Counted from the first letter of the stretch, positions 14,763 to 30,440 are shown. The stretch is DNA of 60,826 nt from an uncultured Spirochaetales bacterium (GCA_964649065.1 CAZYOL010000004.1:1-60826); one strand, 5' to 3'. Made by a program: numbers and translations. The notes: generated by a model not told the origin, from the letters alone.

Positions 14763-17700
14763 ATGGGGGCGAAGCTGCTCCGCTCGGCGGGCGCCGCCGC
14801 GCGGATCGGTCGCGCGCGGCAGTGGCTCGTGAGCCGAGCCGCGGGAGAGGAGGTGCTGGTGCTGGCCGCCAGCGCCCGGGCCGCCTCCGAGCTGCTGCGG
14901 AGCGCCGCGCTGGAGCGAGGCGCCGGCTTCGGCTGGCACCGGGCGACGCTGTCCTCGCTGGCCCGGGAGCTGGCCACGCCGGCCCTGGTGGAGCGGCAGC
15001 TGGCGCCGGTCGGCGGGCTGGCCGCCGAGGCCGTGGTGGCGCGGGTGGTCGATCGGCTCCGGGAGCGGGATCGGCTGGGGCGCTACGCCGCCGTGGCCAA
15101 CGGTCCCGGCCTGGCCCGGGCGCTGCTGCGCTCGCTGCAGGAGCTGCGCTTCGCGCGCGTCGACCGGGTCGAGCTGGCGGCGGTCGACCCGGAGCTGGCC
15201 GCACTGGCCGATGCCTACGGCGCAGGGCTGGCCGAGGCGGGCCTCGCGGATCGAGCGGCGGTCTACGAGCTGGCCGTCGAGGTCGGAGCCGACGCATCCG
15301 TGCGTCACCCCTGGCTCGGTCTGCCCAGCCTGCTGCTCGACGTGCCGGTCGAGACGGAGCTGGAGGCGGCGCTGCTCGGGGCGCTGGTCCGGCGCGCGCC
15401 GGAGCTGCTGGCGACGCTGCCGCGCGGCGACGAGGCCAGCGAGCAGCGGCTCGTCGAGCTGCTCGGCGCCGAGCCGGAGTGCCTGGACGGCGCGGCCGCG
15501 GGCTCGCTGGAGCGGCTGCAGCGCCACGTCTTCGAGTCGGCCCCGGCCCCCGCGGAGGCCGACGACCGGGTGGTCGTGCTCTCCGCCCCGGGCGAGAGCC
15601 GCGAGTGCGTGGAGATCGCGCGCCGCGCCCTGCACCTGGCCGAGTCGGGAGTGCCCTTCGACCGCATGGCGGTGCTGCTGCGCTCGGTCGAGGAGTACCG
15701 GGCGCACCTGGAGGAGGCCTTCGGCCGGGCCGGCGTTCCGCTGCTCTTCGAGCGCGGCGCGTTGCGGCCCGAGCCGGCCGGCCGCGCCTTCGCCTCGCTG
15801 CTGGCCTGCGCGGCGGAGAACCTCTCGGCGCGGCGCTTCGCCGAGTACCTGTCGCTGGGCGAGCTGCCGGACGCGACGCCCGACGGGGCGCCGCCGCCGT
15901 CGCTGACGGCTGCCGAGCGCTGGGTCGCGCCCGACGAGGAGCTGGTGACCGCTGCGGTGGCCGAGGCTCTGGGCGAGCGCCTCGTTCCGGAGTCGACGGC
16001 CTCCACCGACCCGGAAGAGCGCTCCGTGCGGGAGGGCAGCCTGCGGGCGCCCCGGCGCTGGGAGGCGCTGCTGGTGGACGCGGCGGTGATCGGGGGCAGC
16101 GAGCGCTGGCAGCAGCGGCTGGACGGCCTGGCCCGTCAGCTCGAGCTCGACCTGGCCGAGCTCGAGGATCCGGAGTCGGCAAAGGCCGAGGCGCTGCGGC
16201 GGGCCTGCCGCGACCTGGCATCGTTGCGCGACTACGCGCTGCCGCTGATTGCGGATCTGGTGGCACTGCCGCGGCGGGCGACCTGGGGCCGCTGGCTCGA
16301 CGCGCTGGCCGCGCTGGCGACCCGAGGCCTCAGGCGGCCCGAGCGCGTGCTCGCCGTGCTCGCCGAGCTCGCCCCGATGGCCGGCGTCGGCGAGGTCGAC
16401 CTGGCGGAGGTGAGGGCGGTGCTGACGCCGCGGCTGGTGGCGGCGGCCGCGCCGCCGCCGCGCCGCCGCGCCGGCCAGGGCTACGCGGGGCCGGCAGAGA
16501 CGGCGCGCGGCTTGGCCTTCGACGTGGTCTTCGTGCCCGGTCTCGCCGAGCGGCTCTTCCCGCGCAGGATCGAGGAGGACCCGATCCTGCTCGACGAGAC
16601 CCGGCGCCGCCTCCACCCGGCCCTCCCGACGCGTCCCCAGCGGGTGGCCCACGAGCGCCGGATCCTGCGCCTGGCCGTCGGCGCGGCGGGCAGCCAGCTG
16701 GTGCTCTCCTATCCGCGCCTCGACCTCGACCAGGGCCGGCCGCGGGTGCCCTCCTTCTACGGCCTGGAGGTGCTGCGCGCCGTCGAGGGGCGGCTGCCGG
16801 GCTTCGACGAGCTCCAGCGACGAGCCGAGCGGGTCGGCGACGCCCGGGTCGGCTGGCCCGCCCCGCGGCGTCCGACCGACGCCATCGACCAGGCCGAGCA
16901 CGACCTGGCGCTGCTCGACGGGCTGCTCGACCGCGACGAGGAGAAGAGCGTGGGCACGGCGCGCTATCTCCTCGGCGCGAATCCACACCTCGGCCGGGCG
17001 CTGCGCTTCCGCGGCCGGCGCTGGCGCGGGGGCTGGACCGTCGCCGACGGCATCGTGCGGCCCTCGGCGGCCGCCCGCCGGGCGCTGCGCAGGCACGCCC
17101 TGGCCGAGCGCAGCTACTCGCCCACGGCCCTGCAGCACTACGCCGCCTGTCCCTACCGTTTCTTTCTGCAGGCCGTGCTGCGGCTGGCTCCGCGAGAGGT
17201 GCCCGTGGCCCTCGAGGACGTCGACCCGCTGACCCGCGGCAGCCTGGTGCACGACGTGCAGTTCCGGCTGCTCACTCGGCTGCGCGAGGAGGGCCTGCTG
17301 CCGGTGCGGGCGGAGAATCTCGCCCGCGCCCGCGAGCTCCTCGACGAGATCCTCACCCGGGAGGCCGAGCGCTACCGCGACGATCTCGCCCCCGCCATCG
17401 AGCGGGTGTGGCTGGACGCCGTCGACTCGATCCAGGCGGACCTGCGCGAGTGGCTGCGGCGCGCGAGCCTGGACGAGTCGGGCTTCGTGCCCTGGCGCTT
17501 CGAGCTGGCCTTCGGCCTCTCCGGGCGTCGCGAACGCGACGCGCGCTCGACGCGCGAGGCGGTGCGCCTCGCCTGCGGGCTGCGGCTTCGCGGCTCGGTG
17601 GATCTGGTCGAGCGGCGCGACGGCGGGACCCTGCGCGTCACGGACCACAAGACCGGCAAGAGCCGGGTCTCGCCCGGTGCCGTGATCGCCGGCGGCGAAG

Positions 17701-18029
17701 CCCTGCAGCCGGTGCTCTACGCCCTGGCCGCCGAGCAGCTCGAGCCCGGGGCCCGGGTGGAGTCCGGGCGGCTCTACTACTGCACGTCGGCCGGCGGCTT
17801 CGACGAGGTCTCGGTGCCCCTCGACGATGCTGCGCGGCGCAGCGCCGAGGTGCTCGCAGCCACCGTGGGCCGCGCGCTGGAAGAGCCCTTCCTGCCGGCT
17901 GCGCCGGCGCGCGGCGCCTGCCGCTTCTGCGACTACGTCTCCGTGTGTGGGCCCTCGGAGGAGACGCGCACGGCGCGCAAGTCGCCCCGCGAGCTGGCGC
18001 CCCTGCGGGCCCTGCGAGAGCTGCCGTGA
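14763..18029 (+). CDS. addB: AddB-like helicase-nuclease subunit (PD-(D/E)XK nuclease with Fe-S staple)
   Basis: Degenerate helicase fold; YSPTALQHYAACPYRFF, LRGSVDLVE...VTDHKTG, LQPVLYAL, CRFCDYVSVC. Confidence 0.85.
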   Translation: MGAKLLRSAGAAARIGRARQWLVSRAAGEEVLVLAASARAASELLRSAALERGAGFGWHRATLSSLARELATPALVERQLAPVGGLAAEAVVARVVDRLRERDRLGRYAAVANGPGLARALLRSLQELRFARVDRVELAAVDPELAALADAYGAGLAEAGLADRAAVYELAVEVGADASVRHPWLGLPSLLLDVPVETELEAALLGALVRRAPELLATLPRGDEASEQRLVELLGAEPECLDGAAAGSLERLQRHVFESAPAPAEADDRVVVLSAPGESRECVEIARRALHLAESGVPFDRMAVLLRSVEEYRAHLEEAFGRAGVPLLFERGALRPEPAGRAFASLLACAAENLSARRFAEYLSLGELPDATPDGAPPPSLTAAERWVAPDEELVTAAVAEALGERLVPESTASTDPEERSVREGSLRAPRRWEALLVDAAVIGGSERWQQRLDGLARQLELDLAELEDPESAKAEALRRACRDLASLRDYALPLIADLVALPRRATWGRWLDALAALATRGLRRPERVLAVLAELAPMAGVGEVDLAEVRAVLTPRLVAAAAPPPRRRAGQGYAGPAETARGLAFDVVFVPGLAERLFPRRIEEDPILLDETRRRLHPALPTRPQRVAHERRILRLAVGAAGSQLVLSYPRLDLDQGRPRVPSFYGLEVLRAVEGRLPGFDELQRRAERVGDARVGWPAPRRPTDAIDQAEHDLALLDGLLDRDEEKSVGTARYLLGANPHLGRALRFRGRRWRGGWTVADGIVRPSAAARRALRRHALAERSYSPTALQHYAACPYRFFLQAVLRLAPREVPVALEDVDPLTRGSLVHDVQFRLLTRLREEGLLPVRAENLARARELLDEILTREAERYRDDLAPAIERVWLDAVDSIQADLREWLRRASLDESGFVPWRFELAFGLSGRRERDARSTREAVRLACGLRLRGSVDLVERRDGGTLRVTDHKTGKSRVSPGAVIAGGEALQPVLYALAAEQLEPGARVESGRLYYCTSAGGFDEVSVPLDDAARRSAEVLAATVGRALEEPFLPAAPARGACRFCDYVSVCGPSEETRTARKSPRELAPLRALRELP

Positions 18030-21000
18030 CGGCTCCTCTTCCCGACGCGGTGGCCCGCCGCCGGATCGAGAGCGAGCACGAGGCGAGCTTCTTCGTCGAG
18101 GCGGCGGCGGGCACCGGCAAGACCACGGCCCTGGTCGGCCGCATCGTCTCGCTGCTGCGGGCCGGCGGCGCCGAGCTGGAGGGCATCGCCGCCCTCACCT
18201 TCACCGAGAAGGCCGCCGGCGAGATGAAGCTGCGGCTGCGGGCCCGCATCGAGCAGGCCCGCTCCGAGAGCAGCGCGTCGCAGCAGGAGCGGCGGCGTCT
18301 GGACCGCGCCCTGCAGCAGCTCGAGCTGGCGCGCATCGGCACCATCCACGCCTTCTGCGCCGATCTCCTGCGCGAGCGCCCGGTCGAGGCGGGCGTGGAC
18401 CCCCTCTTCGAGGTCGCGGCCGAGGAGGAGGCCGAGGAGCTGCTGGAGGCCGCCTTCGAGGACTGGTTCCAGCGGGTACTGGCCGACCCTCCGGAGGGGG
18501 TGCGCCGGGTGCTGCGGCGGCGCGGCCAGGGGCCGGCCGGGGCGGGGCCCCGCGAGCAGCTGCGGCGCGCCGTCGCGAGCCTGGTCGAGCATCGCGACTT
18601 CGCGGCGCCCTGGCGACGGAGCCCCTTCGATCGCGAAGCGGCCATCGATGCGCTGTGGCGGGAGCTGCGCGAGCTGGGCCCGCTGGCCCGGCGGGCCGCG
18701 AGCCCGAGAGACTGGCTGGCGCGCAGCTTCGAGGCAATCGGACGCTTCGTCGAGGAGGTGGAGCTGCTGGAGGCGGTTCGCGAGGGACGCCGCGACTACG
18801 ACGGCCTCGAGGCCCGCCTGCGCGACTTCGCGAGCGGTCGCCAGCGGCACTGGCGTTGGACCGGGGGGCAACGCCCCTACGCGAAGGGGCTGCCGCGCCA
18901 GGCGCTCTTGGCCCGTCGCGATGCCGCGCGGGCCGCGCTGCAGGAGCTGCTCGAGCGCTCCGCCGCGGATCTGGCCCCGCTGCTGCAGCGCGAGCTGCAG
19001 CCGGTGCTCGAGGCCTACCGCGAGCGCAAGCGGCGTGCCGGGCGACTCGACTTCGTGGACCTGCTGCTCGCGGTGCGCGACCTGATCGTGCAGCGGCCGG
19101 AGGTGCGCCGCGACTTCCAGCGCCGCACCAGCCACTTCTTCGTCGACGAGTTCCAGGACACGGACCCGCTGCAGGCCGAGATCCTGCTGCTGCTGGCGGC
19201 AGACGACCCGGAGGAGACCGACTGGCTGCGCGCCCAGCCGGTGCCGGGCAAGCTCTTCGTGGTCGGGGACCCCAAGCAGTCGATCTATCGCTTTCGACGG
19301 GCCGACGTGGCGATCTACGAGGAGACCAAGCGCCGCCTGGTCGAGCGCGGCGCCGAGACCCTGCAGCTCTCCGCCAGCTTCCGCGCGCTTCCCTCCCTGC
19401 AGCAGGCCATCAATGCCGCCTTCGAGCCCGCCATGGACGAGGCCTCACCCGGGATCCAGGCCCGCTACGTCCCCCTGGAGCCGGTGCGCGCCGAGGCGAC
19501 GGGTCGCCCCTCGCTGGTGGCCCTCCCGGTCCCGCGGCCCTACGGCGACTACGGGAGCGTGGTCCAGTGGCGGATCGAGGACTCGGCGCCCGACGCCATC
19601 GCGGCCTACGTGGACTGGCTGGTGCGCGAGAGCGGCTGGAGCGTCGAAGACCCGGAGCGGCCGGGCCGGTCGGTGGCGCTGGCGCCGCGCCATGTGTGCC
19701 TGCTCTTCCGGCGCTTCCGCAGCTTCGAGACCGACGTGACGCGCCTCTATGTCCGGGGCCTGGAGGCGCGCGGGATTCCGCACGTGCTGGTGGGCGGCCG
19801 CTCCTTCCACGACCGCGAGGAGGTGCTGGCCCTGCGCAACGCCCTGGTCGCCATCGAGTGGCCCGACGATGCGCTGCGCGTCTACGCGACGCTGCGCGGA
19901 CCGCTCTTCGCGCTCGGAGACGACGCGCTGCTCGCCTACCGGGAGCGCTTCGGGAGCCTGCATCCGCTGCGCCCGCGCGGGGAGGCGACCCTGGAGGACT
20001 CGGAGGTCGAGGTGGCCGAGGCCCTGGACGTCCTGGCCGAGCTGCACCGCCAGCGCAATCGCCGGCCGGCGGCCGCCACCCTGGGCGCCCTGCTCGAGGC
20101 GGTGCGGGCCCATGCGGGCATCGCCATCTGGCCCACCGGGGAGCAGGCCCTGGCCAACTGCCTGCGCAGCCTCGACCTCGCGCGGCGCTTCGAGCGGCGG
20201 GGCGCCACCTCCTTTCGCGCCTTCGTCGAGCGGGTCGAGGCCGATGCCGAGCGGGGCGAGGCGCGGGATGCACCGGTCGTGGAGGAGGGCACCGAGGGCG
20301 TGCGCATCATGACCGCGCACCGGGCCAAGGGCCTCGAGTTCCCGGTCGTCGTGCTGGCGGACCCGACGGCCATGCTCACGGGTCGCGAGCCCACCCGACA
20401 CGTCGATGTGGGAGCCCGGCTGTGGGCCGAGCCCCTGTGCGGCTGCGTTCCCGTCGAGCTGCGCGAGGCGCAGGAAGAGGAGCGCGCCCGCGACGCGGCC
20501 GAGTCGGTGCGCCTGGCCTACGTCGCGGCCACGCGCGCGCGGGAGCTGCTGGTGGTCCCGGTGCTCGGCGACGGCTGCCAGCCCCTCGAGGATCGCTGGC
20601 AGCGTCCGCTCCTCGCCGCCGTCTACCCGGAGCCGCGGGCCCGGCGCGAGGCCGGGCCCGCACCGGGCTGTCCGGACTTCGGTCAGGACAGCGTGCTCGA
20701 GCGACCCGACGCCGCTGGCAAGGGGGCCTCGGCCTCGGTGGCGCCCGGCCTGCATCGCTCGCGCGCCGGCACTCCCGTGGTCTGGTGGGACCCGGCGCAG
20801 CTCTCCCTCGGCATCGAGGCCCGCGTTGGGCTGCGCCAGGAGCGCATCCTACACGCCGACGAGTCGGGTACGAATGCGGAGAGCGGCGAGCGCGCCCACG
20901 AAGCCTGGCAGGCGCGACGCCTGGGGGCGCTGGAATCGGGCCTGCGCGCTTCGCTGGAGGTGCATCCGGTGACGACCCTGGCGGAGCAGCGCCCGCCGGA

Positions 21001-21496
21001 CCCGGAGCCGCCGGTCCTCGTCGAGTCGACCGACCGCGACCGCTCCCGGCGTCCCGGAGGGCGCCGCTTCGGCAGCCTGGTGCACGCCGTGCTGGCGGTC
21101 GTCGACTTGCGCGACGCGCCCGCTCGCATCCGGGCGGCGGCCGAGGCGCAGGGTCGGCTGCTGGGCTGCCCGGAGGAGGAGGTGGCCGCGGCGGCCGAGG
21201 CGGTGGAGGCGGCCCTGGAGCACCCGCTGCTGGTCCGGGCCGCGCGCAGCGACGCCCTGCGTCGCGAGACGCCGGTGCTGCTGCGGCTGCCCGACGGTGC
21301 GCTCGGCGAGGGGGTGGTCGACCTGGCCTTCCGCGAGCCCGACGTCGATCCGCCCCACTGGACCGTCGTCGACTTCAAGACCGATCGCGAGCTGGCCGCG
21401 CGGCGCCCGGTCTACGAGTCCCAGGTGCAGCTCTACGCCCGAGCCGTGCAGGCGGCGACGGGCGAGCCCTGTCGCGGAGCCCTCTTGGTGCTCTGA
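18026..21496 (+). CDS. addA: AddA-like UvrD helicase-nuclease
   Basis: GTG start overlapping the addB stop; EAAAGTGKT, LTFTEKAAGEM, TIHAF, VDEFQDT, VGDPKQSIYRFRRAD, MTAHRAKGLEFP, YVAATRAR; C-terminal VDL...VVDFKT...QVQLY. Confidence 0.92.
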   Translation: MTAPLPDAVARRRIESEHEASFFVEAAAGTGKTTALVGRIVSLLRAGGAELEGIAALTFTEKAAGEMKLRLRARIEQARSESSASQQERRRLDRALQQLELARIGTIHAFCADLLRERPVEAGVDPLFEVAAEEEAEELLEAAFEDWFQRVLADPPEGVRRVLRRRGQGPAGAGPREQLRRAVASLVEHRDFAAPWRRSPFDREAAIDALWRELRELGPLARRAASPRDWLARSFEAIGRFVEEVELLEAVREGRRDYDGLEARLRDFASGRQRHWRWTGGQRPYAKGLPRQALLARRDAARAALQELLERSAADLAPLLQRELQPVLEAYRERKRRAGRLDFVDLLLAVRDLIVQRPEVRRDFQRRTSHFFVDEFQDTDPLQAEILLLLAADDPEETDWLRAQPVPGKLFVVGDPKQSIYRFRRADVAIYEETKRRLVERGAETLQLSASFRALPSLQQAINAAFEPAMDEASPGIQARYVPLEPVRAEATGRPSLVALPVPRPYGDYGSVVQWRIEDSAPDAIAAYVDWLVRESGWSVEDPERPGRSVALAPRHVCLLFRRFRSFETDVTRLYVRGLEARGIPHVLVGGRSFHDREEVLALRNALVAIEWPDDALRVYATLRGPLFALGDDALLAYRERFGSLHPLRPRGEATLEDSEVEVAEALDVLAELHRQRNRRPAAATLGALLEAVRAHAGIAIWPTGEQALANCLRSLDLARRFERRGATSFRAFVERVEADAERGEARDAPVVEEGTEGVRIMTAHRAKGLEFPVVVLADPTAMLTGREPTRHVDVGARLWAEPLCGCVPVELREAQEEERARDAAESVRLAYVAATRARELLVVPVLGDGCQPLEDRWQRPLLAAVYPEPRARREAGPAPGCPDFGQDSVLERPDAAGKGASASVAPGLHRSRAGTPVVWWDPAQLSLGIEARVGLRQERILHADESGTNAESGERAHEAWQARRLGALESGLRASLEVHPVTTLAEQRPPDPEPPVLVESTDRDRSRRPGGRRFGSLVHAVLAVVDLRDAPARIRAAAEAQGRLLGCPEEEVAAAAEAVEAALEHPLLVRAARSDALRRETPVLLRLPDGALGEGVVDLAFREPDVDPPHWTVVDFKTDRELAARRPVYESQVQLYARAVQAATGEPCRGALLVL

Positions 21497-21554
21497 TGGG
21501 CGCCCGAGGGAGCGGCGCACGGCGCACGCTCTCCCGGCACCTATACTCATTCTC

Positions 21555-22559
21555 GTGAAGGTCCTCGTCACCGGAGCCACCGGCTTCGTCGGCTCCCACG
21601 CCGCTCTCGCCCTCGATCGAGCGGGTCATCAGCTGCGGGTCCTGGTTCGCTCGGAGAGCAAGGCCGAGCGCGTGCTCGGCGCCCGCGGGGTGCGCTACGA
21701 GGCGGTGGTCGGCGACATGACCGACCGGGCCAGCGTGGAGCGGGCCCTCGACGGCTGTGAGGCCGTGCTGCACGCGGCGGCGACCGTCTTCGGGGGGCCC
21801 GAGGCCATCGCCAGCAACGTCGCCGGCGTGCGCCACGTGCTCGGCGCCGCCGCCGAGCGCCAGCTCGATCCGATCCTCTACGTCTCGACCATCGTCGCCA
21901 TGTACCCGCCGCCGGGCGAGCGCGTGACGGTGGAGGACCCGATCGCCAGCCTGAAGACCTCGTACGGGCGCTCGAAGTCCGAGGGCGAGCGCCTGGCCCG
22001 CGAGCTACAGGCGGGCGGCGCCCCGGTGGTGATCCTGTACCCCGCCGGTGTCTACGGCCCCGACGATCCGGGAGTCGGCGAGACCTCGAAGGGGCTGCGC
22101 GACGCGATCCGCTACGGCTGGCCGGTGCCCGCCACCGGCGGCGTCTCGATGGTGGACGTTCGCGACCTGGCCCAGCTGATCGTCGCGGCCCTCAAGAGTG
22201 GACAGGGGCCGCGGCGCTTCATGTGCGGCGGGCACTTCCTCCGCTGGGAGGACAAGGCGAGCCTGTGCGAGCAGCTCACCGGCACGCGCATGCGCCGCTT
22301 TCGCACGCCCGGCTGGCTGCTGCTGCTGGCCGGCAGCCTGATCGACCTGGCCAAGCGCGTCCGCAGCTTCGACTACCCGCTGACCCGCGAGGCCGCGGAC
22401 CTGATGATTCACATGAAGCCCTGTGACAGCGACGCCACGCGGCGCGAGCTCGGCGTGGAGTTCCGGCCCCCCGAGGAGACCCTGGCGGACCACATCCGCT
22501 GGCTGCATCGAATCGGCGAGCTCGACGACGCCCAGGTCGGCCGGCTGGCGCAGGCCTGA
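21555..22559 (+). CDS. Extended SDR / NAD-dependent epimerase-dehydratase
   Basis: VTGATGFVG, VLHAAA, YGRSK; TATACT 7 nt upstream of the GTG. Confidence 0.9.
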   Translation: MKVLVTGATGFVGSHAALALDRAGHQLRVLVRSESKAERVLGARGVRYEAVVGDMTDRASVERALDGCEAVLHAAATVFGGPEAIASNVAGVRHVLGAAAERQLDPILYVSTIVAMYPPPGERVTVEDPIASLKTSYGRSKSEGERLARELQAGGAPVVILYPAGVYGPDDPGVGETSKGLRDAIRYGWPVPATGGVSMVDVRDLAQLIVAALKSGQGPRRFMCGGHFLRWEDKASLCEQLTGTRMRRFRTPGWLLLLAGSLIDLAKRVRSFDYPLTREAADLMIHMKPCDSDATRRELGVEFRPPEETLADHIRWLHRIGELDDAQVGRLAQA

Positions 22560-22591
22560 AACCCCGCCGCCGCCCGGGCATCGCAAGCGCC

Positions 22592-23995
22592 ATGCGGAGC
22601 TTCGGCCGGACCGTACTGCGCAGCCTGCGAGTGGGGGCCGGGCTCGTCCGGACTCCGATTCCGCAAGAGGCACGGCGCGTCCTCGCAGAGGCCTGGGCGC
22701 GGATTCCGCCGGCGCTGCGGGGGCCGCGTCAAGTGCTGGGCCGCCAGTATGCCGGCTGCGGCGCGCTGATCGGCACACTGCCGCGCTGCGACTTCGCCTG
22801 TCGCGGCTGCTACCTGGGGACGGAGGCAAACCGGACGCCGGCCGCCCCGCTCGAGGAGATCGGGCGCCAGCTGCGGCGCGTGCGCGAGTGGACGGGCCCC
22901 GGCGGAAACGTCCAGATCACCGACGGCGAGGTCACGCTGCGCGATCCGGACGAGCTGACCTGGATCGTCCGCGAGGCGCGACGCCTCGGCCTGGTGCCCA
23001 TGCTGATGACCCACGGCGAGGCGCTGCGGCAGGACCCGGAGCGCCTGCGCCGGCTGATGCTGGAGGCCGGGCTGGCCGACATCAGCATCCACATCGACAC
23101 CACCCAGCGCGGCCGCCGGGGAGGCGGGTACCGCCGACCGGGCTCGGAGCGGGAGCTGCATCCGCTGCGCGACGAGTTCGCCGCGCTGATCCGGCGCCTG
23201 CGCGCCGAGACGCGGCGCCCCCTGCGAGCCGCCACGACGGTGACCGTCACGCCGCACAACGCCGGCGAGGTGGCCGACGTGGTTCGCTGGGTCGCCGCCC
23301 ACGCGGACGCCTTTCGCATGCTGAGCTTCCAGCCCGTGGCCCAGGTCGGTCGCACCGAGCCGGGGCTCGGCGGGGGCGTCGATGCCGAGAGCGTCTGGCG
23401 GGGCATCGAGGCGGGGCTGGCCGACCGCGACTCCGCGGGCGCCGCCCCGAGCGACAGCCAGGGCTGGCTCGGGCACCCGGACTGCTCGCGCTTCGTCCAG
23501 GCCCTGGTGCGGCGCAGCGCCTCCGGTCGCGTCCGGCACGTCGCCCTCTTCCGGCTCGGACTCCCCGGGGATGCGCGAGTCTTCAGCGGGCTGCTCGAGC
23601 GCCTGGGCGGCCTCAGCCTGCGCCTGGATCGGCCGGCCCGCGCCCGGCTGCGCCTGGCCGCCGCGCTGGCGCGTCACCCGGGCTTTCTGCTCGGCCGGGT
23701 GCTGCCGTGGCTGTGGCGGCTGCTGGGTCGCGTGGCGCCGGAGGGCCGGCTGCGCTTCGCCCTCGCCTGGGCGCGGGGCCAGGAGCGACTGGACTACCTG
23801 AACGTCGTCAGCCACCACTTCATGAGCGCCGAGCAGCTGGCGAGCCCGCGCGGGCGCGAGCGGCTGGCGCTCTGCAAGTTCCGGGTCCCCGTGCAGGGAG
23901 AGCTGGTATCGATGTGCGAGGTCAACGCCTCGGGAATCCGCGACGCCTACTACGAGGGGCTGCGCCGCGCGGCGGCCGGCACGCGCGCCGCGTGA
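22592..23995 (+). CDS. Radical SAM protein, distantly MJ0619/Tes(GDGT-MAS)-like
   Basis: CDFACRGC (CxxxCxxC); QITDGEVTL at the GGE position; SFQPVAQVGR, GHPDC, HHFM...RLALC...VSMCEVN C-terminal motifs. Confidence 0.8.
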   Translation: MRSFGRTVLRSLRVGAGLVRTPIPQEARRVLAEAWARIPPALRGPRQVLGRQYAGCGALIGTLPRCDFACRGCYLGTEANRTPAAPLEEIGRQLRRVREWTGPGGNVQITDGEVTLRDPDELTWIVREARRLGLVPMLMTHGEALRQDPERLRRLMLEAGLADISIHIDTTQRGRRGGGYRRPGSERELHPLRDEFAALIRRLRAETRRPLRAATTVTVTPHNAGEVADVVRWVAAHADAFRMLSFQPVAQVGRTEPGLGGGVDAESVWRGIEAGLADRDSAGAAPSDSQGWLGHPDCSRFVQALVRRSASGRVRHVALFRLGLPGDARVFSGLLERLGGLSLRLDRPARARLRLAAALARHPGFLLGRVLPWLWRLLGRVAPEGRLRFALAWARGQERLDYLNVVSHHFMSAEQLASPRGRERLALCKFRVPVQGELVSMCEVNASGIRDAYYEGLRRAAAGTRAA

Positions 23996-24849
23996 GGGCC
24001 GCCGGCCTGCTGCTCCCCCTCGGCCTGCTGCTCGCCTGCTCCACCGTGACGCCTCGCGCTCCCGCCCCGGCGCAGGCCGAGGGGGCCTTCCTGCACGACG
24101 ACCTCGACCGCTTCCTGAGCCGCCACGTGGACGACCGGGGCCGGGTCGACTACGCCGCCGCCGTCGACGATCGCGCGGACCTCGACCGCTACCTCGCGGC
24201 CCTGGCCGCCGCCAGCCCCGACAGCCATCCCGAGCGCTTCGCGGACGAGGATGCGCGCCTGGCCTACTGGCTGAATGCCTACAACGCCTCCGTGATCGCC
24301 ATCGTGCTGGAGCACTACCCGATCTCCGGCGTGAAGCAGGTCCGGGCACCGATTCCCCTGCGCTACCTGCTGCCCCGGGTGGCGGGCTTCTTCCTCTTCC
24401 AGCGCGCCCGCCTGGGGGGCCGCGCCGTCTCCCTCTACGGCCTGGAGAACCGCGTCGTGCGGCGGCGCTTCTCCGATCCGCGCATCCACTTCGCGCTGAA
24501 CTGCGCGTCGATCGGCTGTCCGCGGCTGCCGGCCGGGGCCTTCACCGGGCCCCGGCTCCCGGAACAGCTCGAGCGGGAGACGCGCCGCTTCGTCGCCGAG
24601 GAGCGCAACCTCCGGCTGGACGCCGAGAGCCGAACGCTCTGGCTCTCCTCGATCTTCCGCTGGTACGAGTCGGACTTCACGAGCTGGCTGGAGCGCCGGC
24701 AGGCCGGGCAGGGCTCGGGCCTGCGCGACTACGTGCTGCTCTACCTGGACCCCGAGCGGGCGGCTCCCATCCGCGCCTGTGCCGACTGCCGGGTGGCCTT
24801 TCTCGACTACGATTGGGGGCTCAATGTCCGGCGCGACGCAGCGGGCTGA
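23992..24849 (+). CDS. DUF547 domain lipoprotein
   Basis: Lipobox LLAC; GRVDY, LAYWLNAYNA, DPRIHFALNCASIGCPRL, LSSIFRWYESDF, YDWGLN; GTGA coupling to the radical SAM gene. Confidence 0.9.
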   Translation: MRAAGLLLPLGLLLACSTVTPRAPAPAQAEGAFLHDDLDRFLSRHVDDRGRVDYAAAVDDRADLDRYLAALAAASPDSHPERFADEDARLAYWLNAYNASVIAIVLEHYPISGVKQVRAPIPLRYLLPRVAGFFLFQRARLGGRAVSLYGLENRVVRRRFSDPRIHFALNCASIGCPRLPAGAFTGPRLPEQLERETRRFVAEERNLRLDAESRTLWLSSIFRWYESDFTSWLERRQAGQGSGLRDYVLLYLDPERAAPIRACADCRVAFLDYDWGLNVRRDAAG

Positions 24850-25300
24850 GGCGACGCTTCCGGGGCGCAGTGCCGCCTTCCGGACCGGACTCCGGCGCCT
24901 TCCGGCGCTGTTCGTGGGCGTCGTGCTGGTGGCGACCGGCGTGGGCAAGGCGCTGGATCTCGAGGGCTTCGTCGGGGTCCTGGCCGGCTATCGCCTGATG
25001 CCGGCCTGGGGCGATCGGCTGGTGGCCTACACGCTGCCCTTCGTCGAGCTGGCCACCGGCCTGGGGCTCCTCTCCGGCCTCGCCCGGCGCCCCGCGGCGG
25101 CGGCCGCGGTGGGCCTGCACGCGCTGCTGGTGGGCGTGGTCGTGGTCACCCTGTGGCGGGGAGTTCCGGTGGAGAACTGCGGCTGTTTCGGCGTCTTCCT
25201 CGCGCGCCCCTTGAGCGTTCAAACGCTGCTCGAAGACCTGGCGATGCTGGCGCTCTCCCTCTGGGCGCTGGCCGGGGTCCGGCCTCGCCGCGCCGCGTGA
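24824..25300 (+). CDS. MauE/DoxX family redox-associated membrane protein
   Basis: Four TM segments; GVGKALD, LPFVELATG, NCGCFG motif. Confidence 0.85.
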   Translation: MSGATQRAEATLPGRSAAFRTGLRRLPALFVGVVLVATGVGKALDLEGFVGVLAGYRLMPAWGDRLVAYTLPFVELATGLGLLSGLARRPAAAAAVGLHALLVGVVVVTLWRGVPVENCGCFGVFLARPLSVQTLLEDLAMLALSLWALAGVRPRRAA

Positions 25301-26100
25301 ATCCCGGCGCGCTGCTGGCCCTGCTGCTGCTGCCCGGGGGGGCGCTGGCGGAGGGCTGGCGGGAGATCGAGCGCCGGGACGGGGTGGTCGTGGAGGTCCG
25401 GCGCGCCGAGGGGGCGGCCCTGGTGCGGGGGACGGCGGAGCTGCCCGTCGCGGTGGAGCGCGTTCGGCGCGTGCTGCTGGACGTCTCGAGCTTCGACGCC
25501 TGGATGCCGGGCCTGCTGCGCTGGGAGGTGCTGGAGAGGGCGCCCGGGGCCCTGCGCGTCTACGGCCGTCACGATCTGCCGTGGCCGCTGGCGGACCGGG
25601 ACTACGTGGTCCGCTACGCGTGGAGCGAGGAGCCGGGCGGCTTCGCGCTGGAGGCGCGCTCGGTGGCGGGCGGACCCGACCCCGAGCCCCGGGTGGTGCG
25701 GCTCGAGCGCGTCTACTCCCGCTGGGAGCTGCGCCCCGGCGATCGCGGCGGGAGCTGGGTGCGGTACACCTACGACGGCGAGCTCGGGGGGAGGCTGCCG
25801 AGCTTCTGGGTGGAGCGGGCCTGGCGCCGCCAGGCCCCGGAGCTGCTCGCGCGGCTCGCGGCCCGGGCGGCCTCCGCAGTCCTCCTCGAGGACGATCGCG
25901 TTCTCCGGACAGTTCTGCTCCCCCAGCCGCGCCTGGGACTCCAGGCCGGCCGGCACGGTCTCGTGCAGCAGCACGCAGTGACCGCGCTCGTCGTCGCCGA
26001 AGAGGTCCGGCGCCAGCGCGTAGCAGCGCCCGTGTCCGACGCAGAGCTGCTGCTCGAGCCGGAGCTTCACGCGACGCCCGGCCAGACCAGCGGCAGGTAG
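25297..26100 (+). CDS. START/SRPBCC lipid-binding domain protein (domain ends ~25875; ORF reads on into ferredoxin antisense)
   Basis: Signal peptide; W..I..RDGVVV, LPWPLADRDYV, DGELGGRLPSFWV START motifs; GTGA coupling. Confidence 0.8.
   Translation: MNPGALLALLLLPGGALAEGWREIERRDGVVVEVRRAEGAALVRGTAELPVAVERVRRVLLDVSSFDAWMPGLLRWEVLERAPGALRVYGRHDLPWPLADRDYVVRYAWSEEPGGFALEARSVAGGPDPEPRVVRLERVYSRWELRPGDRGGSWVRYTYDGELGGRLPSFWVERAWRRQAPELLARLAARAASAVLLEDDRVLRTVLLPQPRLGLQAGRHGLVQQHAVTALVVAEEVRRQRVAAPVSDAELLLEPELHATPGQTSGR
25879..26070 (-). CDS. fdx: 3Fe-4S ferredoxin (P450 partner); no stop codon after the 64-aa core
   Basis: CVGHGRC...NCPENAI; GTG overlaps the P450 TGA; next codon is TGC and the frame stays open to 25219. 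Confidence 0.85.
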
Positions 26101-27290
26101 CGCACCTCCCGGATGCCCGGCGAGTAGACGGGTCGCTCGCCCTCCTGGATCGAGTAGTCGGGGATCCGCCGGTGCCACTCCTGCATGGCGACCTCGAGCT
26201 CCATGCGGGCCAGGTGCGATCCGAGGCAGCGGTGCGGGCCCGCGCCGAAGGCGACGTGCCGGTTCCGCTCGCGCAGGAAGTCCACGTCGTCGGCGTGGGG
26301 GAACTCCTCCCCGTCGGTGTCGGCGGCCCCGAGCAGCAGGGTCACGACCTCGCCCTCCCGGATCGCGAAGCCGTGCAGCTCGATGTCGCGCTTGACCAGC
26401 CGCGGCACCGCCATCACCGGCGTCTCGTAGCGCAGCAGCTCCTCCACGGCGGCGGGGATCAGCTGCGGCTGCCGGACGAGCTGGCGGCGCTTCTCCGGGT
26501 TCGCGGCCAGATAGGCGATGTTGCAGCCGAGGGTCGCCGTGACCGTGTCGAGCCCCGCCAGGATCAGCAGGAAGCAGATGTCCAGGATCTCCTCGCGCGT
26601 CAGCTTCTCCCCCTCGAGCTCGGCCGACACCAGGACGCTCATCAGGTCCTCCTGCGGCCTCGCCAGGCGCTCGTCGATCAAGGCGTCGAAGTAGGCGTAG
26701 ATCTGCCGGCCCGTCTCCGCGCGGACCTCGCGGGCGTGGTCCATGTCGCGGATCTCGACCCGCTCCTGGGGCCGGATGATCTTGTCCTTCAGCTCGAGGA
26801 AGAGATCGAGCTCTCCCTCCGGCAGGCCCATCAGGTGCAGGAAGGCGTTGCAGGGCAGGGGGACCGCGAAGTCCTTGTCGAACTCGCAGCGGCCCCGGTC
26901 GAGGAAGCTGTCGATCAGCTGGTTGGCATTGCGGCGCACGTCGGGCTCGATGGCGGCCATGCGGCGGCGCGAGAAGAGCGGATCGAGCAGCTTGCGGTAC
27001 TTGGTCTGGGCCGGGGGATCGATCTGCTGCGGGATCATCGGGCGCTCGGTGCCCAGCGCCATCTGGATGTCCATCTGGGACGAGAAGATCTCCGGGTTGC
27101 GCAGCGCCCAGATCACATCCTCGTAGCGCGAGATGACCGGGCTCTGGGTGAAGGCGGCCCGGGTCACCGGGCACTGGGAACGCAGCGTCGCGAAGACGGG
27201 CTGCGGGCAGGCCACGAACTCCGGGTCGAACAGGCTGAGCTCGCCGGTCTCGGGATCCGGGTTCTGCTGCCTCGGCGGTTCCGCTGCCAT
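26067..27290 (-). CDS. Cytochrome P450
   Basis: AGLDT I-helix, EELLR (ExxR), FGAGPHRCLG heme ligand; GAGGAG RBS before ATG 27290. Confidence 0.95.
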   Translation of the reverse strand: MAAEPPRQQNPDPETGELSLFDPEFVACPQPVFATLRSQCPVTRAAFTQSPVISRYEDVIWALRNPEIFSSQMDIQMALGTERPMIPQQIDPPAQTKYRKLLDPLFSRRRMAAIEPDVRRNANQLIDSFLDRGRCEFDKDFAVPLPCNAFLHLMGLPEGELDLFLELKDKIIRPQERVEIRDMDHAREVRAETGRQIYAYFDALIDERLARPQEDLMSVLVSAELEGEKLTREEILDICFLLILAGLDTVTATLGCNIAYLAANPEKRRQLVRQPQLIPAAVEELLRYETPVMAVPRLVKRDIELHGFAIREGEVVTLLLGAADTDGEEFPHADDVDFLRERNRHVAFGAGPHRCLGSHLARMELEVAMQEWHRRIPDYSIQEGERPVYSPGIREVRYLPLVWPGVA

Positions 27291-27413: not shown

Positions 27414-30400
27414 TCACGGCGTCGTGAGGACGTGCACCAGGCCGTAGTAGAGGGTTCGCAGCAGCAGCCAGGGGCTGGCGTCGGCGGCCGCGCCCGCGAT
27501 GTCCACGGGGGGCACCGGATCGATGCTTCGCGTCTGCTCGTCGGTCCAGGGGCTCGGCCCCCCGGGCCCCAGCGCGCGCACCTGGAAGGCGTAGGCCTCG
27601 CCGTTGGGCAGGGGGGCGACGCGGTGCCGCAGCTCCGGGCCCAGTGTCCGGCGGCGCCAGTCGCCCTGCGGCGCCCGCCTCCAGCGCAGCTCGTAGCCGC
27701 TCGCCCGGGCGTCGTCGGGCGGGTCCCAGACGACGTCGGCCCCGCCCTCGGTGGGGCTCACCAGGAAGGCGCGCGGCCGGGGCAGCGGAGACTCGTCCCG
27801 GCGCGCGAGCTCCAGGCGCAGCGCTGCGATCGCCGCCCGCACCTGCTCGGGAAGCCGCGGGCCCCCCGGCCCCAGGGTCACCACGGCCGGCGGGTGGTGG
27901 AAGCTCGCGGCCTGCTCGACCAGGGCATCGGGCGGAGCCCCGCCCGCGAAGGGCGCGAGCATCAGGGAGAAGCGCTCGCTTGCGCCGTTGAAGCTGGGGG
28001 CGTTGGGCCGGACCGAGGAGGAGCCCAGGGTCGTGAATTCGGTGCCCACGCCGTTGCCGCCGAGGTGGGAGTAGTCGAGCTGGCGCCCGTGGTAGGAGCC
28101 AAAGGGATTGAGGCGCAGCGCCTGCCGGCCGGCGCGCTCGCGCAGGCGCATGGGTGCGAAGGCGAAGGAGCTGCGCACGTCCGCCCGGTCCGCGAGGAGC
28201 AGGCCCTGGCGGCCGTCGGCCACGGCGACCCAGCCCGCGGTCACCTGGTGGTTGAAGGCGTCGAGCTCGGCGTTGCGCGGGTTGATGCGGCCGTAGTCGA
28301 GGGGATAGGAGGAGCGCACGCCGAGGAAGTTGTGCTTCCAGACCACCAGCGGGTCCTCCGGGGCGGCATCGAGGCGCGGCACCAGCTCGAAGGGTCCGAC
28401 CTCGATCCAGCGCAGGTCCAGGTAGCGCCGGAGCTTCTGCTGGTTGGTGTGCAGGATGTCACTCTTCTTGGTGTAGGGATACTCCACGCGCACGTCCGCC
28501 ACCAACCAGGGCGCATCCTCGAGCAGGCTCCAGTCGACCCGGATGCGCGCGTCGCGCCGCCCCTGGGGCGTCTCGATCGGGATCGTGGTGCTCCGCCTCG
28601 CGCGCTGCAGCCCGCTCCAGCGCTCGCCCGCCAGGGGCTCCGCCCGCCAGGCAGTGGCGCGGAAGGTCCGCAGGCCCCGCTCCGTCTGGTAGGTCACGAA
28701 GGGCGAGAGGAAGTCGGGGCCGCCGATCTCGCGCCCGGCGGCGCGCAGCGAGGCGACGCCGCCCTCGTCGAGCCGCAGCTCCAGGTGGGCGTTCGCGAGC
28801 TCCGTGAGCGGCAAGGCGGCGCGGCCGCCCTCCCGCCCGGCGCGCAGGAGGTGCAGGCGGCGCGTCTCGCCCGGACGCAGGGCGACCTGCGTCCAGAGCT
28901 CCGCTGCGATCTCGTCTCCGAGGGTCTCCGGATTCACCCAGGAGTGGGCCAGCCGTCGTCCGTCTCCGTCCACCAGCAGGGTCGCCTCGAGCGGCGCCGC
29001 CAGCCGGACCGGGATGCGCAGCAGGCTGGGCGTCGCAGCTTCGCGAGAGCCCGGCTCGCGCAGGTCGCGGACGGCGAAGGAGCGCAGCGCACCGGGGGGG
29101 CGGGCCCCGGCCCCCGCGCGCTCGGCCCCGACCCGCGCGGCCAGGGCCTCGGCCTGCTCGGCGCGCTCCAGCGAGGTGCCGATCACCCGCTCGGCCACCG
29201 CCTGGCGCTCCTCGTTGACCACCGGCGTGGACATGCCGAAGTGGGTGGTCGAGAGGCCGCGCAGGCGGTGGAAGAAGCTCGAGTCGCGACCTTCCCAGAG
29301 CAGCGGGCGGGCGGCGCTGCGCAGGGCCTCGGGGGCGTCGCGCAGCCAGGCCTCCGCTCGCCGAGCGGCGAGGCGGCCCCGCTCGAGCTGCGTCCACAGC
29401 GCGTGGCTGGGGAGCTTCTCGGCCCAGGAGTAGAGCCCGTCGAAGGAGCCGTCGGCGAGGTCCTGGCGCACCACGACCTCGCCCACCGGCGGGTGGGTCG
29501 CGAGGTACTCCCCGGGCGTCGTGAACTCGGCCCACTCGTAGGCGTTCACCGCCTCGATGTACTCGGGCAGCCCGCCCGCATTCGGGAACCAGGACAGGCC
29601 CAGCGGCAGCTCCTGGGGCAGCCAGCTCTCCACGTCGGCGTCCCAGTTGATGTGGATCGCCAGATCGCGATCCACCTCGCCGCTCACCTGGAGTGCGCGC
29701 AGGTCGAGCATCCAGCGTTCGAGGGAGATGTGGTTCAGGATGTCCCCGATCGAGACGGCGGGGAAGACCGTCAGCCGGGGGCCGTCCTCGCGGAGGCGCA
29801 GCCAGGTCGGATTGTGGCGCTGCTCGATCGGAAGCGTGGGGACGAAGTTGGAGAAGGTGGTGAAGGGCCACTCGGAGTAGGCCAGGATCAGGGCCTCGAT
29901 GCCCTCCTCGCGCAGGATCGGCAGCGTGCCCGTCGTGATCATGCCCTCGTTCGGCCGCAGGATCGCCGTGTGGGTGCCGAAGAGGTCGCGCGCGCCGGAG
30001 CCCCAGGGGTTGTGGATCGACCAGCGCAGCGCCGCGCGGATCTCGTCCTCGGTCATGGCGCTGAACAGGCCGTTGTTGTAAGGGGCGAGGGCGATCTCGT
30101 CGAGGCCCGCCTCGACCCGGCGGCGCATGCCCTCGAGGATGTCCGGGGCGTGCTCCGGCAGGATCGACTCGAGGGTGAAGAGGTTGTCGGTGTCCCAGTA
30201 GGCGCGGGCCTCGAGTCCCCGGGAGCGGGCGTCGTCGAGCATGCGCAGGATCTCCCGCACGATCCGGATGTCGGTGCCGAAGCCGGCCTCGTCCGGGGTG
30301 TCGCCGCGCCAGGAGTGGTAGAAGTTCGAGTGGAAGCCGAGCAGCACGTAGACCTTGTGCGGAGAGTCTCCCCGCGGCTCGGCGCTGCAGGCGACGAGCA

Positions 30401-30440
30401 GGGCTGCCAGGAGGCCCAGCTGCGCAGCGGTCCACCGCAT
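27414..30440 (-). CDS. Large lipoprotein with GH57/GH38-like N-terminal barrel and C-terminal FN3 domain
   Basis: Lipobox LVAC; GFHSNFYHSW, DEIALAPYNN, LRPNEG, HINWDADVESW resemble the GH57/deacetylase fold; VVWDPP...GYELRW...YAFQVRA is FN3-like. Confidence 0.6.
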   Translation of the reverse strand: MRWTAAQLGLLAALLVACSAEPRGDSPHKVYVLLGFHSNFYHSWRGDTPDEAGFGTDIRIVREILRMLDDARSRGLEARAYWDTDNLFTLESILPEHAPDILEGMRRRVEAGLDEIALAPYNNGLFSAMTEDEIRAALRWSIHNPWGSGARDLFGTHTAILRPNEGMITTGTLPILREEGIEALILAYSEWPFTTFSNFVPTLPIEQRHNPTWLRLREDGPRLTVFPAVSIGDILNHISLERWMLDLRALQVSGEVDRDLAIHINWDADVESWLPQELPLGLSWFPNAGGLPEYIEAVNAYEWAEFTTPGEYLATHPPVGEVVVRQDLADGSFDGLYSWAEKLPSHALWTQLERGRLAARRAEAWLRDAPEALRSAARPLLWEGRDSSFFHRLRGLSTTHFGMSTPVVNEERQAVAERVIGTSLERAEQAEALAARVGAERAGAGARPPGALRSFAVRDLREPGSREAATPSLLRIPVRLAAPLEATLLVDGDGRRLAHSWVNPETLGDEIAAELWTQVALRPGETRRLHLLRAGREGGRAALPLTELANAHLELRLDEGGVASLRAAGREIGGPDFLSPFVTYQTERGLRTFRATAWRAEPLAGERWSGLQRARRSTTIPIETPQGRRDARIRVDWSLLEDAPWLVADVRVEYPYTKKSDILHTNQQKLRRYLDLRWIEVGPFELVPRLDAAPEDPLVVWKHNFLGVRSSYPLDYGRINPRNAELDAFNHQVTAGWVAVADGRQGLLLADRADVRSSFAFAPMRLRERAGRQALRLNPFGSYHGRQLDYSHLGGNGVGTEFTTLGSSSVRPNAPSFNGASERFSLMLAPFAGGAPPDALVEQAASFHHPPAVVTLGPGGPRLPEQVRAAIAALRLELARRDESPLPRPRAFLVSPTEGGADVVWDPPDDARASGYELRWRRAPQGDWRRRTLGPELRHRVAPLPNGEAYAFQVRALGPGGPSPWTDEQTRSIDPVPPVDIAGAAADASPWLLLRTLYYGLVHVLTTP

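Follow-up and report, generated by a model that had tools for sequence, protein, structure and literature searches.

A Tes-related radical SAM enzyme paired with an exported DUF547 protein in diverse bacteria: a possible link to organoarsenical metabolism

Background

The archaeal radical S-adenosylmethionine (SAM) enzyme Tes, or GDGT-MAS (MJ0619; PDB 7TOL and 7TOM; NCBIfam NF045702), stands alone to date among structurally defined enzymes in joining unactivated lipid carbons via an auxiliary Fe-S cluster. According to the available text of PMC9433317, Tes contains a rubredoxin-like iron site (ligands C9, C12, C33 and H36) and an N-terminal [4Fe-4S] cluster (C73, C77, C80 and a His); the available portions of that paper and of PMC13459092 also describe the cluster of the radical SAM (RS) core and a C-terminal [4Fe-4S] cluster held by three Cys and the labile Met439. 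In the accessible part of the latter work, a sulfide of the C-terminal cluster serves to park the substrate radical, with formation of a C-S bond between the substrate and the cluster, and a one-sulfur adduct is seen under limiting SAM (PMC13459092). Other radical SAM enzymes that are relevant here include Mss, a membrane-spanning lipid synthase of Thermotoga and Thermoanaerobacter that the available text of PMC13159169 describes as unrelated to Tes and confined to anaerobes; ArsS, which, according to the accessible part of bioRxiv 10.1101/2024.02.01.577332, uses SAM as the donor of the adenosyl group that it attaches to arsenic; and TrsS, which appears as a table entry in the available part of PMC13188914. 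Here we analyze a locus encoding a Tes-like radical SAM enzyme in a stretch of 60,826 nucleotides, hereinafter the window, from an uncultured Spirochaetales bacterium (GCA_964649065.1, CAZYOL010000004.1:1-60826). Positions 21555-26100 of the window (+ strand) contain five co-oriented genes that encode, in this order, a short-chain dehydrogenase/reductase (SDR), the radical SAM enzyme, a DUF547 protein, a MauE-family membrane protein and a START-domain protein.

A radical SAM enzyme with the fold of GDGT-MAS

The radical SAM gene (22592..23995, + strand) encodes a protein of 467 aa in which PF04055 is the sole Pfam domain above threshold (36.6 bits; cut-off 29.5), with DUF7511 detected below threshold. 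The alignment of 35 homologues, the numbering of which is used throughout, contains each of the motifs that had been quoted in the first-pass annotation of the sequence, namely, C66xxxC70xxC73, TDGE (110-113), SFQPVAQVGR (245-254) and GHPDC (294-298), followed in the C-terminal part by HHFM (408-411), RLALC (424-428) and VSMCEVN (439-445). The residues C56, C70, C73, C298, C428, C442, H408 and H409 are invariant among these homologues, and C66 is conserved in at least 90% of them. Residues 1-55 are helical and contain no conserved Cys; upstream of the RS motif, C56 alone is an invariant Cys. No transmembrane segment was detected in the enzyme. The invariant C298 of the GHPxC motif is a candidate third ligand of an auxiliary cluster, and the distant family member P0262 retains the same four Cys and the His (by eye). 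From these sequence features, a C-terminal auxiliary Fe-S cluster appears plausible, and the predicted cluster would be located near a hydrophobic pocket, as in Tes.

The first-pass annotation had likened the enzyme to the Tes/GDGT-MAS family, and this likeness holds at the levels of both sequence and predicted structure. GDGT-MAS (7tol_A) is the single PDB sequence match, with E-values of 1.9e-7 for the single sequence and 2.6e-15 for the 35-sequence profile. A Foldseek search with the AlphaFold2 (AF2) model built on the same alignment (predicted local distance difference test score, pLDDT, 91.9) placed 7TOL/7TOM at the top (E 4.4e-13, query TM-score [TMq] 0.56, 450 columns), followed by DesII (E 1.5e-7, TMq 0.33). 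The VIA-align comparison yielded 7tom as the best match (Z 27.1, root-mean-square deviation 3.4, 339 residues), with residues 42-467 of the model superimposed on residues 54-494 of the chain; viperin ranked second (Z 17.1) and matched in the core only. Because 7TOL/7TOM tops both the sequence search and the full-length fold search, an assignment to the MoaA/PqqE type, which had been named as the outcome that would speak against kinship with Tes, is not borne out: the best structural match is GDGT-MAS.

Comparison with protein family models delineates how far this relationship extends. The equal-best NCBIfam matches are TrsS (59.4 bits; cut-off 490) and Tes (58.1 bits; cut-off 450), both over the RS core only, with the Tes model NF045702 matching residues 64-256. 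ArsS (TIGR04167, membership cut-off 300 bits) is absent from the NCBIfam matches at E<=0.1, and a BLASTP comparison with the ArsS of the same genome aligns only the CxxxCxxC stretch (E 0.054, 18 residues); by sequence comparison, then, the enzyme is not a homologue or paralogue of ArsS. The gene contains no in-frame stop of the kind that marks selenocysteine. A search of the ESM Atlas returned only unnamed radical SAM clusters, including one, at rank 25, in which 17% of the members contain the Tes zinc-ribbon. A whole-genome model search detected no true Tes in the genome to which the window belongs, with nothing better than 58.1 bits. Taken at the level of the modeled fold, the enzyme is a cut-down relative of Tes/GDGT-MAS that consists of the RS core and the C-terminal domain.

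Phyletic spread and the conserved pairing with DUF547

In a word-indexed search that scored 8,000 candidates, 1,539 proteins proved to be relatives of the radical SAM enzyme at E<=0.001, and an exhaustive search of 50%-identity representatives detected 683 relatives at 1e-3, 347 at 1e-10 and 118 at 1e-30. When one genome per species was considered, a relative was encoded in 284 stretches, and the best 80 of these 284 (hereinafter the 80 loci) were studied. All the 80 loci come from metagenome-assembled genomes and represent nine phylum-level groups: Gemmatimonadota (38 loci), Verrucomicrobiota (11), Alphaproteobacteria (11), Methylococcales/Gammaproteobacteria (9), Myxococcota/'Deltaproteobacteria' (5), Acidobacteriota (3), and Limnocylindria, Binatia and Elusimicrobia (one each). 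Within the window's own order, the gene is present in two of the 41 genomes, the window's own genome included, and it was not found in any of the 24 other genomes of the family to which this genome belongs.

The neighbors of the radical SAM gene in the 80 loci were searched by tblastn with the window proteins as queries. A DUF547 gene was found in 69 of the 80 loci, of which 66 have it within 1.5 kb of the radical SAM gene and 51 within 300 nt; its position varies, that is, it can be located upstream, downstream or on the opposite strand. Among the 11 loci without DUF547, four lie on contigs shorter than 3 kb and two have one truncated flank, which leaves five with good flanks (L002, L003, L027, L038 and L057). 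Several loci contain two DUF547 paralogues flanking or near the radical SAM gene (L054, L001 [2249-3160], L004 and L007). In the only other genome of the order that encodes the enzyme (G035), DUF547 is located directly behind the radical SAM gene, and the two loci have nothing else in common. In 11 of the 80 loci, all from Myxococcota or Methylococcales/Gammaproteobacteria, a MauE gene sits beside the pair. Homologues of the SDR or the START protein were not detected near the radical SAM gene in any of the 80 loci, also when the threshold was relaxed to E 0.05. L001, the closest relative, with 64% identity, is the sister of the window enzyme in the phylogenetic tree (97% support in the SH-like approximate likelihood ratio test, SH-aLRT) and is accompanied by DUF547 and MauE only.

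The proposal that the five genes make up a conserved system thus does not stand. From the gene order that had been expected to recur across genomes (radical SAM-DUF547-MauE-START), the link between the first two genes survives, whereas in the 80 loci START is not found and MauE is infrequent. Because of these recurrence counts, what looked like a five-gene system resolves into a conserved radical SAM-DUF547 pair, a lineage-restricted third gene, MauE, and two local additions, SDR and START.

The DUF547 gene of the window (23992..24849, + strand) encodes an exported protein, probably a lipoprotein (PF04784, 75 bits, cut-off 27, E 6.7e-21), with a hydrophobic N-terminus that ends in an LLAC lipobox-like site. 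Hydrophobic, signal peptide-like or lipobox-like N-termini are common, by eye, among the DUF547 homologues for which the alignment reaches the N-terminus. In the 37 members that are linked to the radical SAM enzyme, N95, Y97, N98, E152, R164, H166, C171, C176, P177, D228, F229, Y273 and W275 are invariant, and these include a Cys pair in a C171-x4-C176-P motif. The AF2 model of this protein is confident (pLDDT 93.4), and comparisons with solved structures yielded only a chance match in the PDB sequences (E 1.7), a best Foldseek hit with E 0.1 and TM-score 0.11, and a best VIA-align Z of 5.0 against 48,161 chains, with no nameable family. To judge from the model, this appears to be a fold without a solved relative, such weak matches being no proof of a new fold. 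In the titles and the beginnings of the abstracts of the listed papers on DUF547, no function is described for bacterial DUF547 proteins; the available text of PMC13621322 reports a fusion of plant DUF547 to a glutaredoxin (GRX) domain in class IV GRX-like proteins.

In two relatives, P0146 and P0262, the radical SAM enzyme and DUF547 are parts of one polypeptide chain, with DUF547 behind the enzyme and a hydrophobic, lipobox-like linker between them. Because this hydrophobic segment separates the two domains, they would lie on opposite sides of the membrane, and the sequence of the linker fits a cytoplasmic enzyme with an exported partner. The fusions bear on a possible role of the radical SAM enzyme in maturing proteins or peptides, in which it would modify DUF547, for example, at the C-x4-C-P motif before export, or else another exported protein, in the manner of anSME or maturases of RiPPs, peptides that ribosomes make and that are modified after translation. 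The tight operonic link to an exported protein with a Cys motif is compatible with such a role, as is the presence of SuiB, SkfB, anSME and PqqE among the lower fold matches. However, these matches do not extend beyond the RS core (~220-245 residues, Z 12-16), in contrast to GDGT-MAS, which spans the whole protein; the Pfam matches of the enzyme at E<=0.01 include no SPASM or RiPP-recognition domain; the fusions place the enzyme and its supposed substrate on opposite membrane sides; and no recurrent precursor-peptide gene was found among the neighbor clusters. We therefore consider a maturase very unlikely.

A literature search retrieved no paper in which both DUF547 and radical SAM appear, and neither the family nor its pairing with DUF547 is described in the titles and beginnings of abstracts of the literature on Tes and branched glycerol dialkyl glycerol tetraethers (brGDGT), TrsS, or ArsS and arsenosugars. 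With its distinct domain set and partner, the family represents a Tes-like branch of radical SAM enzymes that is new and does not belong to Tes, TrsS or ArsS, and the substrate of this branch probably differs from that of Tes.

Genomic context and potential function

To characterize the genomic context of the pair, all open reading frames (ORFs) within 6 kb of the radical SAM gene in the 80 loci were clustered under strict coverage, and the cluster representatives were scanned for known families; clusters 2-4 consist of alternative or antisense frames of the radical SAM gene, and cluster 21 was treated as an antisense frame of an Lgt paralogue. The recurrent neighbors include a DedA/VTT membrane protein (18 loci) and a flavoprotein similar to glutathione reductase (GR) and MerA (19 loci), both mostly in Gemmatimonadota and divergently oriented with respect to the pair; a fusion of the two, with 731 aa, is found in Methylococcales. 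An Lgt-family gene is present near the pair in 12 loci from four phyla. In all five genomes examined, which represent four phyla, this neighbor is a paralogue that scores 105-128 bits versus 169-257 bits for the canonical Lgt encoded elsewhere in the genome. A family-2 glycosyltransferase is encoded near the pair in 11 loci, also from four phyla, and is fused to the radical SAM enzyme, in either order, in P0011, P0058 and P0231.

These neighbors are among the reasons to consider a sulfur- or thiol-related module that is independent of arsenic, whereby the Tes-like enzyme would stop at the C-S intermediate and yield a thiolated hydrophobic product or, in a variant, a thiol-redox relay would operate in which MauE or the disulfide reductase linked to DedA regenerates the Cys pair of DUF547. 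Such a module is consistent with the C-S bond and the one-sulfur adduct of Tes that are reported in the accessible part of PMC13459092, and with the plant DUF547-glutaredoxin fusion in the available text of PMC13621322. The invariant C-x4-C-P motif of DUF547, the invariant CGC of MauE and the recurrent GR/MerA-like reductase, rhodanese and Lgt-paralogue neighbors point in the same direction. However, MauE accompanies the pair in just 11 of the 80 loci, and we know of no thiol-lipid of the kind that this explanation requires, which counts against it. Furthermore, the arsenic-related fusions and neighbors described below are left unexplained. On balance, we regard a purely thiol-based function as rather unlikely.

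The representative of the glycosyltransferase cluster belongs to TIGR04283, 'arsenosugar biosynthesis glycosyltransferase' (215.9 bits; cut-off 182), and so do the domains fused to the radical SAM enzyme in P0011 (269.6 bits) and P0231 (230.1 bits); the glycosyltransferase domain of P0058 does not. The 80 loci were accordingly searched with the ArsS, ArsM and TIGR04283 proteins of the window's own genome. ArsS is encoded in six loci (two from Gemmatimonadota, one from Binatia and three from Verrucomicrobiota), ArsM-like proteins in seven and TIGR04283-like glycosyltransferases in 15, so that at least one of the three arsenic genes is present in 20 of the 80 loci; all 28 arsenic-gene matches were confirmed by NCBIfam models at E<=1e-20. 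In a quick phylogenetic tree, the arsenic-linked loci are dispersed over all major clades of the radical SAM family. Most of the matched genomes of the order carry about one ArsS gene each, and we estimate that, over 80 genomes, chance would place less than one ArsS gene at a distance of up to ~8 kb from a given gene. The loci are not independent, but they come from three phyla. The fullest cluster is found in a member of Chthoniobacterales (L054, 1-14509), where a GT2/GT21 glycosyltransferase, ArsS and ArsM (both on the opposite strand), an LCAT-like lipase/acyltransferase and DUF547 precede the radical SAM gene, which is followed by the Lgt paralogue, a second DUF547 gene on the opposite strand, TIGR04283, a rhodanese and FA_hydroxylase. 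The earlier observation that DUF547 also accompanies arsenosugar-type radical SAM clusters is thus supported by the TIGR04283 fusions and by the 20 loci with arsenic genes. Among the comparative signals, the stronger one is for organoarsenical genes, not for plain cross-linking of membrane lipids.

Nevertheless, the similarity to Tes makes it necessary to consider that the enzyme is a bacterial membrane-spanning-lipid synthase that couples lipid tails through C-C bonds, yielding products of the iso-diabolic acid/brGDGT type that would be handled by DUF547, MauE and START. The match to the GDGT-MAS fold extends over the full length and includes the C-terminal radical-parking domain; a further point in favor is an amphipathic helix, the strongest in the enzyme, at residues ~364-386. 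According to the available text of PMC13159169, Acidobacteria lack Mss and most of them lack strict homologues of Tes, and another synthase is therefore sought. However, apart from the fold, the enzyme departs from what defines Tes, in the NCBIfam score and in lacking the rubredoxin-like domain and the N-terminal cluster site, and it lies far outside the set of homologues delimited at E<1e-50 in the accessible part of PMC8941075. Only three of the 80 best loci are from Acidobacteriota, and the presence in two of 41 genomes of the order would be odd for an enzyme that makes a membrane-core lipid. The recurrent neighbors, moreover, are arsenic and thiol genes, not genes of fatty-acid or ether-lipid metabolism. 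Taken together, these observations make a membrane-spanning-lipid synthase an improbable explanation.

The reading that we prefer, at somewhat less than an even chance, is that the radical SAM-DUF547 pair forms an envelope module that acts on a lipid-like substrate and probably represents a branch of organoarsenical metabolism, with arsenolipids or arsenosugar lipids as potential products, rather than a membrane-spanning-lipid synthase. We infer the arsenic link from the fusions and the gene neighborhoods, and the chemistry by analogy. Under this proposal, the cytoplasmic, probably membrane-peripheral radical SAM enzyme would act at the inner face of the membrane, where, as in Tes, the 5'-deoxyadenosyl radical would abstract a hydrogen from an unreactive carbon of the lipid-like substrate. 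The C-terminal auxiliary Fe-S site, with C298, C428 and C442 as candidate ligands and H408 in place of Met439, would serve the second half-reaction. The product could then be handled or carried outside the cytoplasmic membrane by DUF547 with its Cys pair, for which, in this operon, MauE is a candidate thiol-redox membrane partner. Likewise in this operon, the START protein is a candidate carrier of a hydrophobic ligand and the SDR would tailor a polar group. Because the pair is embedded among, or fused to, ArsS, ArsM and TIGR04283 as well as thiol and lipid enzymes, namely, DedA with the MerA/GR-like disulfide reductase, the Lgt paralogue, the LCAT-like protein and the rhodanese, the most likely substrate would be a lipid-linked or lipid-destined organoarsenical.

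Several observations weigh against this organoarsenical reading. No arsenic genes, Lgt paralogue or DedA-reductase were found in the 60.8-kb window or, in the related genome G035, at distances of up to ~9 kb from the pair, and in 60 of the 80 loci, the fetched flanks contain none of the three arsenic genes. Of the 41 genomes of the window's order, 30 encode ArsS and 34 encode TIGR04283, with scores above the respective cut-offs, compared to two with the Tes-like enzyme; therefore, the phyletic profiles do not co-vary. The 'arsenosugar' designation of TIGR04283 is itself an annotation by association. With regard to the proposed auxiliary site, the C-terminal half of the enzyme shows a very weak sequence match to GDGT-MAS (2.4 bits), and the profile of this half alone retrieved nothing from the PDB sequences at E<=10.

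The genome to which the window belongs does encode the arsenic proteins on other contigs, all with scores above the respective cut-offs (ArsS, 424 bits; ArsM, 313.6 bits; TIGR04283, 221 bits). ArsM is located between an ArsR-type regulator and a TauD-family dioxygenase (C28:3591-8030), ArsS is followed by a DedA/VTT protein (C104:12446-14167), and the TIGR04283 glycosyltransferase is followed by an MsbA-like ABC exporter (C81:240-2698). A second DUF547 gene, with no adjacent radical SAM gene, is also present (C54:8604-8924).

A more specific version of the organoarsenical hypothesis, which we consider unlikely, is that the enzyme is an arsenolipid synthase: a hydrogen would be abstracted, as by Tes, from the terminal carbon of a lipid tail, but the resulting radical, rather than being parked on the cluster sulfide and joined to a second tail, would be coupled to a trivalent (methyl)arsenical at the remodeled auxiliary site where His replaces Met. 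Such a reaction would form the C-As bond of arsenic-containing fatty acids, hydrocarbons or phospholipids, the biosynthesis of which is, to our knowledge, unsolved, and DUF547 would be a periplasmic dithiol protein with a new fold that receives or processes the product. The probability that is left beyond the preferred reading and its rivals belongs to an explanation of another kind.

Organization of the locus and adjacent features

The description of the locus in the first-pass annotation as five co-oriented genes is supported by the gene layout and by Pfam scores above the cut-off for every family. The extended SDR gene (21555..22559, + strand; Pfam Epimerase, 102.8 bits, E 2.6e-29) is separated from the radical SAM gene by a 32-nt gap. 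The remaining genes overlap: DUF547 starts with a GTG at 23992, in a GTGA overlap with the radical SAM gene; the MauE gene starts with an ATG at 24824 and overlaps DUF547 by 26 nt; and the START gene starts with a GTG at 25297, in a GTGA overlap with MauE. The four-gene overlap that had been pointed out is thus real at this locus, whereas elsewhere only the radical SAM-DUF547(-MauE) arrangement recurs. The G+C content of the window is high (0.65-0.78). A scan of 21200-26400 detected no promoter-like sites and two terminator-like sites, both within the DUF547 gene and at the level expected by chance. DNA nearly identical to 21555-26100 is present in four public runs of one study labeled 'stromatolite metagenome', with no RNA run among those listed. 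The contig layout also contained many joints with short sides (20-25 letters), which were disregarded, as other organisms are the likely source of such matches.

The MauE/DoxX-family membrane protein (24824..25300, + strand; MauE, PF07291, 78.9 bits, cut-off 27, E 5.3e-22; DoxX, E 3.1e-6) contains several hydrophobic segments and an invariant NCGCFGVF.ARPL motif. A prediction of its complex with DUF547 scored 0.00 (mark 0.32), which amounts to no verdict and was used neither way. The SDR is of the NAD-dependent epimerase/dehydratase type and scores 170.6 bits with the HpnA model (TIGR03466), below the cut-off of 367.65; no squalene-hopene cyclase was found in the genome, which is 94.6% complete, and a role of the SDR in hopanoid synthesis was dropped on these grounds. 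A second extended SDR, 30% identical to that of the operon, is encoded at 9301-10290 (- strand).

The exported START/SRPBCC protein (25297..26100, + strand) matches START (PF01852, 30.2 bits, cut-off 22) and Polyketide_cyc (PF03364, 26.4 bits, cut-off 23.4), and has only 12 homologues at E<=0.001. The domain ends near position 25870 and is followed by a tail of 77 codons, up to 26100, that is absent in six of the seven aligned homologues and replaced by an unrelated tail in the seventh (P0269). This tail runs antisense across an entire ferredoxin gene and into the 3' end of a cytochrome P450 gene. The P450 (26067-27338, - strand; Pfam E 1.7e-27) and the ferredoxin (26070-25879, - strand) share a GTGA in which start and stop overlap, and both are transcribed toward the operon; the pair does not recur with the radical SAM gene, with one weak (23%) P450 match in the 80 loci. 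The ferredoxin frame (Fer4_15, 64 aa, GTG at 26070) has no stop in the window where the domain ends and stays open, antisense through START, to 25219. The contigs of the four public runs have a T for G at 25876, which gives a TGA right after the ferredoxin domain, and show two more differences, C>A at 25828 and C>A at 25859; one of these runs is possibly the source of the window itself. The three variant letters create no stop in the START frame. Because the contigs of all four runs read otherwise, the window carries a variant or an assembly error at the end of the ferredoxin gene.

Farther away, the complementary strand at 27414-30440 contains an ORF of 1008 aa with a lipoprotein-like N-terminus and no Pfam match at E<=0.001. 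Just upstream of the locus (14763-21496, + strand), two long ORFs resemble, by eye from the translations, an AddB/AddA-type helicase-nuclease pair.

Implications and comparison with known systems

The family described here is a widespread, minimal bacterial relative of Tes that is represented in at least nine phylum-level groups and, together with DUF547, for which there is a confident model and no solved relative, provides a new, tractable system for radical SAM enzymology. Arsenolipids and arsenosugar lipids are abundant organoarsenicals of aquatic food webs; should the arsenic link prove true, their biosynthesis would become testable with two or three genes, and DUF547, a domain found in plants as well, would acquire its first biochemical context. 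If, more specifically, the enzyme is an arsenolipid synthase, it would be the third kind of radical SAM enzyme that forms C-As bonds, after ArsS and ArsL. Alternatively, if the product is a modified membrane lipid, these findings would be relevant to efforts to find which bacteria produce lipid biomarkers.

The closest described system is Tes/GDGT-MAS, with which the window enzyme has in common the fold over residues 42-467, the FQPV..GR motif and the HFM...C...C.N block. Of the three C-terminal cluster Cys proposed in the first-pass annotation, C428 and C442 align with C456 and C470 of GDGT-MAS, and H408 aligns with the labile Met439, in a HMMER alignment that is worth 2.4 bits over this stretch (the PDB chain numbering of GDGT-MAS equals that in the available text of PMC9433317 plus 20), whereas C298 is only a candidate for the third. 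In the same low-scoring stretch, His thus takes the place of the labile Met, and S407 that of a neighboring Cys of GDGT-MAS. The window enzyme lacks the rubredoxin-like domain and the N-terminal [4Fe-4S] site of Tes and has TDGE where GDGT-MAS has GGE; both differences had been noticed earlier and are confirmed by Pfam, by the PDB alignment and by the alignment of 35 homologues. At 58 bits against the Tes cut-off of 450, the family is not part of Tes as currently defined, and the 'bacterial Tes homologues' of Zeng et al., delimited at E<1e-50 in the accessible text of PMC8941075, are a different set. Tes is archaeal, in contrast to this bacterial, patchily distributed family that is paired with DUF547.

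The radical SAM (seleno)protein TrsS (NF045646), the equal-best match over the RS core, is, like the window enzyme, part of the Tes-related branch of radical SAM enzymes, and differs in that the window enzyme scores far below the TrsS cut-off and contains no selenocysteine-type stop. With ArsS, ArsM, TIGR04282 and TIGR04283, the likeness lies in genomic company, not in homology with ArsS: ArsS, as described in the available part of the work cited above, adenosylates arsenic, whereas the Tes fold of the window enzyme suggests hydrogen abstraction from a hydrophobic chain. Mss is likewise a radical SAM enzyme that acts on lipid tails, and differs by its description, in the accessible text of PMC13159169, as unrelated to Tes and confined to anaerobes. 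Finally, the window MauE belongs by score to the family of the MauE/MauD thiol-redox helpers, which assist periplasmic thiol-redox reactions in the maturation of methylamine dehydrogenase, and carries the Cys motif in a membrane segment; unlike those systems, the window operon includes no MauD, thioredoxin-like partner or mau genes, and MauE is found with the radical SAM-DUF547 pair in only 11 of the 80 loci.

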